Below are positions 12,328-14,547 of a stretch of 37,504 nucleotides of DNA, piece after piece. The position numbers and the translations under genes are program-made. The notes below the pieces were generated by a model. It did no database searches and was not told where the DNA came from. It saw nothing but the letters and a program-made list of their open reading frames with translations. Positions within the stretch are counted from its first letter, which is position 1, and every line of letters begins with the position of its first letter. Source of the stretch: a virus (Duplodnaviria > Heunggongvirae > Uroviricota > Caudoviricetes); IMG/VR virus record IMGVR_UViG_2660238580_000001, positions 1 through 37,504 of that record; one strand, written 5' to 3'.

Positions 12328-12346
12328 GACGGCCATATTGGCCGTC
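12328..12346. terminator. Perfect hairpin between convergent genes (possible bidirectional terminator)
   Basis: GACGGCCA-TAT-TGGCCGTC (8-bp stem) directly after the Q stop and overlapping the stop of the convergent membrane-protein gene; no clear U-tract. Confidence 0.4.
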
Positions 12347-13523
12347 AGCTAAATAAATATGTAATAGCATAAGGCGTAAGTAAAAAGTAGAATCTAAATG
12401 TAAGATATAAGCCACATAAAACTATAATTCCTAATGAGGCAAAAACAACTTTCTGAACAAGCAATCTTGTGGTTAAACTATCAAATGTATCCTTTATATC
12501 TTCGTAAATAGCCTTGAAGTTATATTCTGCTTGTTGTTTTTTATGATTTAACTCATCATTTATTGCTGTTAAAGTTTGCCATTGATTAAATAGAACAAAT
12601 AGAATCATAATAGTGAAGAACAATGCACCCAACACTACAGCTGTATTTATTAATGCTTGACTATCCCAACCATTAGCCTGCTTCATTTGAGTCGCAACGA
12701 TAATTGTTGCGACGGGGATACCTAATATCTGATTTTGTATGTCACTGAATACTTTATGTATTTTTCCCATCTCTTCTATTTTGGCTACTCGTAACTGATC
12801 CAGTATTTTCTCGTAAGAAAAACCAGAAACGAATACTTTGTATCCTTTTTGATAACTTTCATAAAGTTGTCCTAAATCCCTTAACATGAAGGAAAAAGAG
12901 GTTTCTTTAGTTTTAGATTCACATGATGATTTTATGCTACTTGCTAAAATAGTAAGTTTTTGATCTTTATGCGTATCTTCTGCAAAGTTTGCGATCAAAT
13001 TATGAATCAGATCTCCATTAACATTCATAAGATCATCGCTAGAATAATTTACTGGAATTTTTAGTACGTTGGATTCGACGAATACCAATTCAAAATTTGT
13101 TTCATCTAAATAAGCAGAACAATCTTTGAATAAAGTAATTAAGCTCAAAACATCTCTGTACTTGGATATAATAGCAGGCGACTTTTTATCCCTGTTGTGA
13201 TAATTAAGTTCGATTATAAAGAAGTTACTGGCTTCCTTTATCCTATTTTTAGGATTTTTTAAATACTCATTAAAAGAGAAATGTAGCTGCCCCAATCGTA
13301 ATTTGGGGGGGGTTATATGTAAGGTTATAGTTTGGCCTAACTCAATGTTGCCAGATTCAAGGGTGATGCCAAAATCATGGGGATTCTCTGTGATATCGTT
13401 GATGATGTCACAGAGCTCCTCGTTTGAAAGAATGAGTGATGCTTCAGATAGGGTACCTGCAAATGTAGCGGCCTTGTAAATAGTCACTAAGTCTTTGAAG
13501 GTTCTCTGATTGTTACTGCTCAT
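12345..13523 (-). CDS. Hypothetical protein with two C-terminal transmembrane helices (cargo gene B)
   Basis: ATG at 13523 with AGGTGA upstream (track start 13532 is an upstream GTG); about 280-aa soluble region then two hydrophobic helices (AVVLGALFFTIMILFVLF; VVFASLGIIVLCGLYLTFRFYFLL); AT-rich; 11-nt overlap with the upstream gene. Confidence 0.7.
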   Translation of the reverse strand: MSSNNQRTFKDLVTIYKAATFAGTLSEASLILSNEELCDIINDITENPHDFGITLESGNIELGQTITLHITPPKLRLGQLHFSFNEYLKNPKNRIKEASNFFIIELNYHNRDKKSPAIISKYRDVLSLITLFKDCSAYLDETNFELVFVESNVLKIPVNYSSDDLMNVNGDLIHNLIANFAEDTHKDQKLTILASSIKSSCESKTKETSFSFMLRDLGQLYESYQKGYKVFVSGFSYEKILDQLRVAKIEEMGKIHKVFSDIQNQILGIPVATIIVATQMKQANGWDSQALINTAVVLGALFFTIMILFVLFNQWQTLTAINDELNHKKQQAEYNFKAIYEDIKDTFDSLTTRLLVQKVVFASLGIIVLCGLYLTFRFYFLLTPYAITYLFS

Positions 13524-14547
13524 CCTCTTCACCTAATTCTGATAAAATCTCTGATCTTAGCGTATCCGGAATCTCGGTAAGTATCAATTTATCGTTTTCT
13601 GAATCATAAAGAACGCTGCCATCATGCAAGGCCGCACGCTCGAATTTCAGAGACCAATGTTTGGACTTTCCTTTGAAACTAACAAGCCCACGTATAACGT
13701 TGCCATCAGGCACGAACCCATCAGAGAACTCCAGATCGTCATTGGTTAACTTTTCAACTAACAACTCAGGAGCAGTTGGCCATATCTCGTTTGCAAAAAC
13801 TTGAGTGTCGAAAGCTTCACCAGAACGATTTAAATTTTTTAATTTTTCATGAGCCTTATTTAGGAACTCTTCACGTGCCTCTGGTTCAAAACCTCTTTCA
13901 GTAGCAAATTCTAAAAGTGCATTCCGTAATTTTGTTGTTTCTTGTTTGGCAATTAGAATATCGTTGCAACCTAAAAACTTTTTGAAATAACCTGCTACTG
14001 AATTTTGCCCCTTTAGAAAGCTAATATATCTCTCTTTGCCATTCTGGCGCCCAGTTAAGTCAATTCGTCCCGCTACTCGAAGTTTAGCAATGTCTAGATA
14101 TTCACTTTCTTGAATTTCAAAATCGTGGACTGAAGAGCCAACTGCTGATGTTAGGATTGCAACCATCAAATAATGATTTCCATTTACCTCATTATGGGCA
14201 ATTATTACATAACCACCAGTAGACATTGATTCATCATCGGCTCTGGCTTTTAAATGATTGATCATTCGGATACTAGTATCATAAAAACTATGTGTTTTAT
14301 TTACGAAATAATCATCAACGATATTACCCATAGGGTAACTATCGCGGTCATCTTCAAATTTACCATATCCTTTACCTGCTCTCCCAGAGTACCTTTCAGT
14401 AAGTGCGTTAGAGAGGTCTTTTGATGCTTGCTGAACAGGTTTTTCTGAAGGACAAGGAATAATGGTGGCTAACCCCTGTTGTTCCTTGTTCATAATGTGA
14501 ACAATAAACTTATGAGTGATATTAGTGGGGGTCGCTGATGCAGTCAT
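13513..14547 (-). CDS. YejK/NdpA-like nucleoid-associated protein (NA37 family) (cargo gene A)
   Basis: ATG at 14547 preceded by AAGGA; central block GGYVIIAHNEV ... GRIDLTGRQNGKERYISFLKGQNSVAGYFKKFLGC aligns to my recollection of E. coli YejK ([39 protein letters not shown]). Confidence 0.7.
   Translation of the reverse strand: MTASATPTNITHKFIVHIMNKEQQGLATIIPCPSEKPVQQASKDLSNALTERYSGRAGKGYGKFEDDRDSYPMGNIVDDYFVNKTHSFYDTSIRMINHLKARADDESMSTGGYVIIAHNEVNGNHYLMVAILTSAVGSSVHDFEIQESEYLDIAKLRVAGRIDLTGRQNGKERYISFLKGQNSVAGYFKKFLGCNDILIAKQETTKLRNALLEFATERGFEPEAREEFLNKAHEKLKNLNRSGEAFDTQVFANEIWPTAPELLVEKLTNDDLEFSDGFVPDGNVIRGLVSFKGKSKHWSLKFERAALHDGSVLYDSENDKLILTEIPDTLRSEILSELGEEDEQ

Follow-up and report, generated by a model that had tools for sequence, protein, structure and literature searches.

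What might be the function of two AT-rich genes that lie antisense to their neighbours, between the antiterminator gene Q and the lysis genes of a prophage? The question is raised by the IMG/VR virus record IMGVR_UViG_2660238580_000001, a Caudoviricetes sequence whose whole length of 37,504 nucleotides (nt) was analysed and is referred to here as the window. The pair is carried by an SfII/SfV-like prophage that looks complete, lies at the Escherichia coli thrW-proA site and has a contractile tail, Q, lambdoid early genes and a holin-endolysin-spanin cassette. An earlier reading of the sequence (the original prediction) held that the pair, a nucleoid-associated protein and a membrane-anchored protein, was a candidate novel defence or exclusion system. 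The two genes are as follows.

13513-14547, minus strand: gene A, encoding a 344-residue NA37/YejK-family nucleoid-associated protein, the putative sensor (DS-1A/Pag2A analogue); PGAP accession WP_048228897.1.
12345-13523, minus strand: gene B, encoding a 392-residue membrane protein, the putative effector (DS-1B/Pag2B analogue); ATG start, PGAP accession WP_000097747.1.

The answer favoured here, with a probability of about 0.72 on the grounds of sequence comparison and analogy, is that the cassette is a prophage-borne two-gene anti-phage system, in which a YejK-like sensor is paired with a membrane effector as in the DS-1/type II PANGU class. Within that class the window pair appears to be a divergent subtype, with a predicted role in defence.

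DS-1 is one of 42 validated systems in the DefensePredictor study (PMC13092281), where it is system D390 and consists of two genes, DS-1A (WP_000355468.1) and DS-1B (WP_000150292.1). With its native promoter it lowers plating of Bas1 by 7.6 logs, of Bas26 by 2.7, of Bas3 and T3 by 1.7 and of T5 by 1.0 (PMC13092281, Table S7). DS-1A has 391 residues and contains a zinc ribbon and an NA37 domain, while DS-1B has 404 residues and hydrophobic C-terminal helices. PANGU systems were defined independently in a 2026 preprint (bioRxiv 10.64898/2026.04.06.716658). The type II system, found in E. coli, is bicistronic and comprises the YejK-like Pag2A together with Pag2B, whose N-terminal domain is an acidic 'DNA mimic' and whose C-terminal domain is transmembrane. 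Both genes are required, and the phenotype at high multiplicity of infection is abortive. Pag2A tagged with green fluorescent protein is found on the nucleoid and disperses upon T4 infection, and its dissociation constant (KD) for the isolated Pag2B N-terminal domain is 19 nM; escape mutants of type I PANGU map to EndoII, which degrades host DNA (bioRxiv 10.64898/2026.04.06.716658). The logic of a DNA-binding sensor and a membrane effector, which the original prediction had put forward, has thus been shown since in the homologous systems DS-1 (PMC13092281) and type II PANGU (bioRxiv 10.64898/2026.04.06.716658).

Gene A is a member of the NA37 family, in agreement with the earlier description of it as a YejK/NdpA homologue. 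It matches Pfam NA37 (PF04245) at 232.1 bits (E = 1.5e-68; profile positions 1-324 of 325; gathering cut-off 24.6) and phrog_3767 ('nucleoid associated protein') at 4.6e-80. Its sole relative in the PDB is E. coli YejK 9be2 (9be2_A, E = 1.7e-19), aligned with residues 92-334. Assignment of gene A as an orthologue of chromosomal YejK was considered and rejected: it scores 165 bits against the NCBIfam YejK model (NF001557), for which the equivalog cut-off is 341, and is 22% identical to K-12 YejK.

In BLASTP comparisons, gene A is 25% identical to DS-1A over 197 residues (E = 3e-10) and gene B is 28% identical to DS-1B over 104 residues (E = 4e-7). When a profile of 25 gene B relatives was aligned with DS-1B by hhalign, the probability was 94% (E = 1e-7) over 278 collinear columns. 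NCBIfam release 20 includes a pair of DS-1 models, NF053868 DS1_1_antiphage ('nucleoid-associated anti-phage protein') and NF053869 DS1_2_antiphage, and the second of these is matched by all 25 of the diverse gene B relatives (best E = 5.9e-26). As judged from these alignments, the homology between gene B and DS-1B is real, at the level of a superfamily. The exact gene B protein, WP_000097747.1, also appears in DefensePredictor Table S10 as a 'Predicted novel defense gene' with a log-odds score of 11.97; no record of it was found among the tested units of that study. The proposal of an unnamed, novel system therefore had to be given up: both genes match DS1_1 and DS1_2, DS-1 lies in the same slot of sister prophages, and the gene B protein was already listed as a predicted defence gene. 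A match to a described system, which the original prediction had itself named as grounds for refutation, was found at the family level (DS-1/type II PANGU).

The second line of evidence is positional, and concerns the following features.

12308-14597, no strand assigned: exchangeable module, delimited by blastn flank homology to sister prophages carrying DS-1 or a third allele.
11970-12320, plus strand: Q (antiterminator), convergent with gene B.
14598 to about 14686-14695, plus strand: late-leader block, common to all three alleles, to SfII/SfIV and to lambdoid phages.
14838-15164, plus strand: holin, from the open reading frame (ORF) list and annotation.

Flank homology to the prophages of E. 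coli G8 and strain A1_181 stops at window positions 12292-12307, at the 3' end of Q, and restarts at 14598, a point that in each allele precedes the NA37 start codon by about 51 nt. The interval 12308-14597 can therefore be regarded as an exchangeable module. In G8, the validated DS-1 genes WP_000355468.1 and WP_000150292.1 occupy the same slot in the same convergent orientation, next to a Q region with 93.5% DNA identity to that of the window. In A1_181 the slot is filled by a third pair, WP_227912851.1 and WP_016159279.1. The proteins of the three alleles share only 18-28% identity, and the window NA37 protein is the nearest to YejK among them. Among 5,426 complete E. coli genomes, DS-1 is present in 106, the third allele in 30 and the window allele in 16 (the last at 98.7-100% identity), each abutting Q and each conserved at 98.7% or above within its type; the Q region itself is shared by roughly 890 E. 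coli genomes. The cassette is a positional allele of validated DS-1 in the cargo slot just 3' of Q.

Unrelated minus-strand cassettes fill the same slot in other sister prophages, and this stretch, from Q to the late leader, behaves like a hotspot for cargo or defence genes. At the DNA level, only the late-leader flank matches known phages in the phage collection searched. The original placement of the genes 3' of Q and before the lysis genes was correct, with the amendment that the cargo slot lies upstream of the late leader/terminator (14598-14686). A position downstream of that terminator, as in the classic stx-type slot, was rejected because flank homology puts the cassette upstream of the late-leader/terminator block.

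Other occupants of the slot 3' of Q were recorded as side observations. Two loci carry convergent hypothetical pairs, of 308 and 182 residues (L052, 4828-6289) and of 313 and 149 residues (L053, 4875-6287), neither of which has an NCBIfam or PADLOC match. A third (L054, 4887-5549) carries a 220-residue protein that matches PADLOC PDC-M68A/HNH-endonuclease effectors and lies beside an IS3 element.

The third line of evidence is the constancy of the pair. As the original prediction required, the genes co-occur far outside the prophage lineage of the window, in Gallionella, Jeongeupia, Klebsiella and a Sinorhizobium phage, and of the 40 IMG/VR loci with upstream DNA all 40 have an NA37 gene on the same strand directly before the gene B homologue. 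In the Gallionella chromosome the NA37 gene is directly upstream of the gene B homologue beside ParD and PemK toxin-antitoxin genes, and the same direct arrangement is seen in Sinorhizobium phage phi2LM21. In Mu-like prophages of Jeongeupia (L004, 4001-6227) and Klebsiella (L005, 3991-6200), the homologous pair is co-directional with and just before the holin/endolysin genes. As the pair stands beside lysis genes both there and, in antisense, in the window prophage, it has settled at this position in two unrelated phage architectures.

The junctions between the two genes in distant homologous loci are usually overlapping or abutting. Across 25 pairs, identities between gene A proteins and between gene B proteins are strongly correlated (r = 0.94; in a Mantel test, 0 of 2000 permutations were as high), which argues for co-inheritance as a unit; this co-divergence could be explained by shared ancestry alone and is no proof of physical interaction. 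Across Proteobacteria and their phages, gene A and gene B are passed on as a single overlapping unit.

The gene B protein is widespread, with 369 relatives recovered by a word-indexed search and 1,112 clusters at 50% identity (755 at E <= 1e-10) by an exhaustive profile search. It matches phrog_5023 at 4e-80; in Pfam it gives sub-threshold noise only (YbhQ, OppC_N), and no toxSAS domain. Four parts of the protein can be distinguished.

12879-13523, minus strand: soluble alpha/beta domain, residues 1-215, an AlphaFold2 (AF2) block with predicted local distance difference test (pLDDT) scores mostly of 80-93; candidate partner-binding ('DMK'-like) domain.
12681-12845, minus strand: most conserved core, residues 227-281, GY..F.SGFSY.K...AK.EE.GKIHK.FSDIQNQILGIPVAT..V.TQ.K (invariant columns of a 25-sequence alignment).
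12585-12653, minus strand: hydrophobic helix 1, residues about 291-313, Kyte-Doolittle peak 2.72, inside the AF2 helix 288-335.
12390-12464, minus strand: hydrophobic helix 2, residues about 354-378, Kyte-Doolittle peak 2.26, inside the AF2 helix 340-382.

In the AF2 model, which was built on 25 homologues and has a mean pLDDT of 81, the alpha/beta domain (1-215) is followed by a 61-residue helix (217-277) and then by a two-helix hairpin (288-335/340-382), whose helices of about 45 residues each bear the hydrophobic segments. The two strong C-terminal hydrophobic segments of the original prediction are thus borne out, whereas its soluble domain of about 280 residues is replaced by a confidently folded one of about 215, followed by a long juxtamembrane helix. 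Residues 266-280 form a shorter, almost invariant hydrophobic stretch, ILGIPVATIIVATQM, and an invariant N313-Q314 marks the end of hydrophobic helix 1. A Foldseek search of the model against the PDB and BFVD returned nothing at E <= 0.001, and the modelled layout would resemble CorA channels or ClyA-type pore formers in generic terms only.

The core at 227-281 corresponds to a juxtamembrane helix that BLASTP and hhalign also find in DS-1B, and the best-conserved part between the two proteins consists of this helix, an L-x-IP-x-A segment and the hairpin. Conservation centred on these elements suggests that the effector core runs from the juxtamembrane helix to the hairpin, and that the N-terminal domain is the partner-specific part.

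A number of observations weigh against assignment to the DS-1/type II PANGU class. Gene A scores 56.4 bits (2.4e-15) against DS1_1_antiphage, below the cut-off of 330, and gene B 70.3 bits (1.6e-19; profile positions 36-287 of 337) against DS1_2_antiphage, below the cut-off of 315. As a positive control, authentic DS-1A and DS-1B score 451 and 375 bits, both above the NCBIfam cut-offs, and the third allele scores about 100 bits on each model (99.8 for its NA37 protein). The window pair, which is only 18-28% identical to DS-1, is therefore a distinct subtype, and on these scores it is the allele furthest from DS-1. The N-terminal zinc ribbon of DS-1A (MDITCLECG...CDKCG; CxxC...CxxC) is missing from gene A. 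The match to type II PANGU concerns its architecture as described. The phage-resistance phenotypes, moreover, are those of the original DS-1 and of type II PANGU, from which defence by the window subtype is predicted.

The presumed activities of the two proteins raise further objections. YejK dimers form a clamp whose pore is basic, and their binding of DNA shows no preference for sequence; mutation of the pore residues R173, R176, K177, R276, R280 and K284 abolishes or weakens DNA binding. Of these six, R280 alone is kept in gene A and its enterobacterial relatives, so that DNA clamping by gene A is not assured. There are extra lysines near the pore positions in gene A, and four of the six residues are retained in more distant NA37 partners of gene B relatives. 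The N-terminal part of gene B (residues 1-262) has a net charge of -6 and an isoelectric point of 5.7, in a family whose net charge ranges from -1 to -16; as it is only mildly acidic, a role as a DNA mimic is unproven. A scan for consensus sigma-70 promoters gave none upstream of gene A. Finally, neither gene has a match in PADLOC-DB 2023; authentic DS-1 has none there either, and this absence is uninformative because the library is older than these systems.

If the cassette does act as the DS-1/type II PANGU class does, a mechanism can be proposed by analogy with PANGU. In the lysogen, the gene A protein would sit on the nucleoid as a DNA clamp, from which it would be released when an infecting phage degrades or remodels the host DNA. 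The freed protein would then bind the acidic N-terminal domain of gene B at the inner membrane, and gene B so bound would have its C-terminal helical hairpin activated. Growth of the infected cell would cease before the phage cycle ends, probably because the membrane loses its integrity, and this would amount to abortive infection. The loss of five of the six basic pore residues, together with a partner domain that is barely acidic, suggests that the subtype may sense something else. It is conceivable, though doubtful, that the signal differs from bulk release off degraded host DNA, a protein of the phage or a particular DNA structure being examples, and that gene B, laid out as a cytoplasmic alpha/beta domain, a long stalk helix and the C-terminal hairpin, is a new kind of membrane effector.

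Three other explanations must be set against an abortive defence system, and all are less likely given the strict pairing with a membrane protein, the occurrence of the pair outside prophages and the phenotypes of homologous pairs. The one that survives best, although it is unlikely, is superinfection exclusion at the envelope, whereby the DNA-binding partner would guide the membrane protein to block the entry or early establishment of phage DNA and so protect the individual lysogen. Gene B is membrane-anchored, judging from its hydrophobic segments and the AF2 model, and the cassette is prophage cargo; the 7.6-log drop of Bas1 on DS-1, with no plaques, would also be compatible with direct immunity. 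However, type II PANGU is abortive at high multiplicity and its sensor leaves the nucleoid only after infection, and NA37 proteins are cytoplasmic nucleoid clamps.

It is less probable still that gene A is a regulatory nucleoid-associated protein of the mobile element, comparable to NdpA2 of PAPI-1, which adjusts transcription of the prophage or the host; gene B would then be an accessory membrane partner, and defence would not be the primary function. Going by the title and abstract of PMC8565334, NA37 paralogues on mobile elements can regulate transcription of the element, and the co-directional position just upstream of lysis genes in Mu-like prophages would suit such a role. Yet in all contexts examined the coupling of gene A to a conserved membrane protein is strict, the pair is found outside prophages too, next to toxin-antitoxin genes, and homologous pairs confer phage resistance that needs both genes; other defence-like cargo, too, is found in the same slot of sister prophages. 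Least probable is decaying or silent cargo, in which intact ORFs would be unexpressed or non-functional in the window lineage: the failure to find a consensus promoter, the truncated versions of gene B in databases (P0020, P0032) and the frameshifts that PGAP reports in some prophage genes point that way, but both ORFs are full length for their families with conserved motifs intact, the ribosome-binding sites and the overlap are preserved, and 16 genomes from a range of hosts have kept the cassette at 98.7-100% identity.

The signals that might govern expression of the presumed defence cassette were read from the sequence of the cassette and its borders.

13513-13523, minus strand: overlap of the two genes, 11 nt, between the 3' end of gene A and the gene B ATG (sequence read).
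13529-13534, minus strand: Shine-Dalgarno-like AGGTGA of gene B, 5 nt before the ATG.
12345-13532, minus strand: gene B from an alternative GTG start at 13532 (ORF list).
14586-14591, minus strand: -10-like hexamer TATTAT, the best element by eye, with a poor -35; low-confidence candidate cassette promoter.
12328-12346, no strand assigned: GC-rich 8-bp hairpin GACGGCCA-UAU-UGGCCGUC where Q and gene B converge, overlapping the gene B stop codon.

The original account of these genes as an overlapping minus-strand pair with starts supported by ribosome-binding sites is confirmed by the coordinates and by the AGGTGA of gene B and a Shine-Dalgarno-like AAGGA 7 nt before the ATG of gene A. The ATG start of gene B is also the choice of PGAP in the RefSeq annotation of an identical prophage, and translational coupling of the two genes through the 11-nt overlap is likely. 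Their AT-richness and opposed orientation, both noted at the outset, were likewise found: the GC content of the cassette is 32-39% compared with 50-57% in the flanks, and all phage genes neighbouring the cassette are on the plus strand. Antisense orientation and low GC content fit a self-contained cargo pair (a 'moron') expressed independently of the phage lytic programme.

At the distal end, no terminator was called after gene B in a terminator scan. The hairpin between Q and gene B has fold energies of -15.2 and -16.3 kcal/mol, with z-scores of -3.1 and -4.9, and was not called by the scan because it has no T-run; it is a possible bidirectional terminator or RNA stabiliser, as a candidate without a U-tract. 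At the other border, the late-leader block contains a terminator-like hairpin (14664-14685) followed by a T-run. We infer that this block, to the right of the cassette, is a late-operon leader acted on by Q.

Elsewhere in the window, an AT-rich ORF (16216-16704; about 41% GC) encodes the 162-residue WP_048228900.1 between the spanin genes and the HNH endonuclease/terminase module, and may be a second cargo gene. At about 29100-29640, a sharp dip in GC content to 34% corresponds to the 176-residue hypothetical protein WP_000679481.1, an insertion that has the tape-measure gene on one side and the DNA-circularization/baseplate genes on the other. PGAP annotation of the identical prophage in NZ_CP127297.1 gives frameshifted pseudogenes for a DUF2570 spanin-like gene (window about 15628-16015) and a GP46 baseplate gene (about 33700-34120), which suggests that the prophage may be partly defective for lysis or tail assembly.

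One block of 1.8 kb, at 35045-36828, has an unusual composition: A is strongly depleted, at 2-9% per 100 nt, and the AT skew is about -0.6. The prophage in NZ_CP127297.1 is otherwise near-identical, its roughly 680 mismatches to the window being confined to this block, which is found in no complete E. coli genome. Each window base within it equals either the reference base or the base at the same position of the reverse-complemented segment, the alphabetically later letter being present at about 90% of discordant positions; 92.5% of the block is recovered when, position by position, the later of the letters in the segment and in its reverse complement is taken. The invertible tail-fibre segment concerned adjoins a Pin/Cin-type recombinase gene. 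The stretch 35045-36828 is therefore not biological sequence: it blends the invertible segment's two orientations base by base, as an artefact of the consensus or the assembly.

How does the pair compare with systems that are already known? Chromosomal YejK (NdpA, PDB 9be2) belongs to the same NA37 fold family as gene A. Unlike chromosomal yejK, which has no co-oriented partner gene, gene A is prophage-encoded and coupled to a membrane partner, and it differs from YejK at five of the six experimentally important basic pore residues. NdpA2 of the Pseudomonas aeruginosa integrative and conjugative element (ICE) PAPI-1 is also an NA37 paralogue on a mobile element. It is a regulator of the transcription of ICE transfer, however, and the title and abstract of PMC8565334 describe no gene B-like membrane partner.

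In type I PANGU, which consists of Pag1A and the toxSAS GRel toxin Pag1B, a YejK-like sensor similarly activates its partner through a DNA-mimic domain after phage-induced genome damage; Pag1B is a soluble alarmone synthetase, whereas gene B is a membrane protein without a toxSAS domain. The architecture that defines type II PANGU is that of the window pair. Its YejK-like gene lies in a bicistronic operon, defined by a gap of less than 40 bp where the window has its 11-nt overlap, and its partner has a C-terminal transmembrane domain, for which gene B has hydrophobic helices predicted by Kyte-Doolittle analysis and AF2. The acidic, DNA-mimic character of Pag2B is, by contrast, weakly evident in the N-terminal domain of gene B (net -6). 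RefSeq labels the window pair 'hypothetical protein' and 'nucleoid-associated protein', labels that are now tied to an experimentally validated defence class. Being nearest to YejK and yet without most of its DNA-contacting residues, the subtype provides a test case for the model in which a sensor is freed from the nucleoid, and for the way in which the membrane effector acts.

DS-1 differs from the window pair in that DS-1A is less close to YejK than gene A is (81 compared with 165 bits on the YejK model) and that the hydrophobic helices of gene B are far more hydrophobic than those of DS-1B. In other respects the two are alike: the NA37 gene comes first and next to it, in the same orientation, is a gene whose product is a membrane protein of about 400 residues with C-terminal hydrophobic helices, the GC content is low, and in sister E. 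coli prophages the slot 3' of Q and the orientation within it are the same for both. With three deeply diverged alleles swapping between identical flanks in SfII/SfV-like E. coli prophages, DS-1, the third allele and the window pair can be compared in a similar background.

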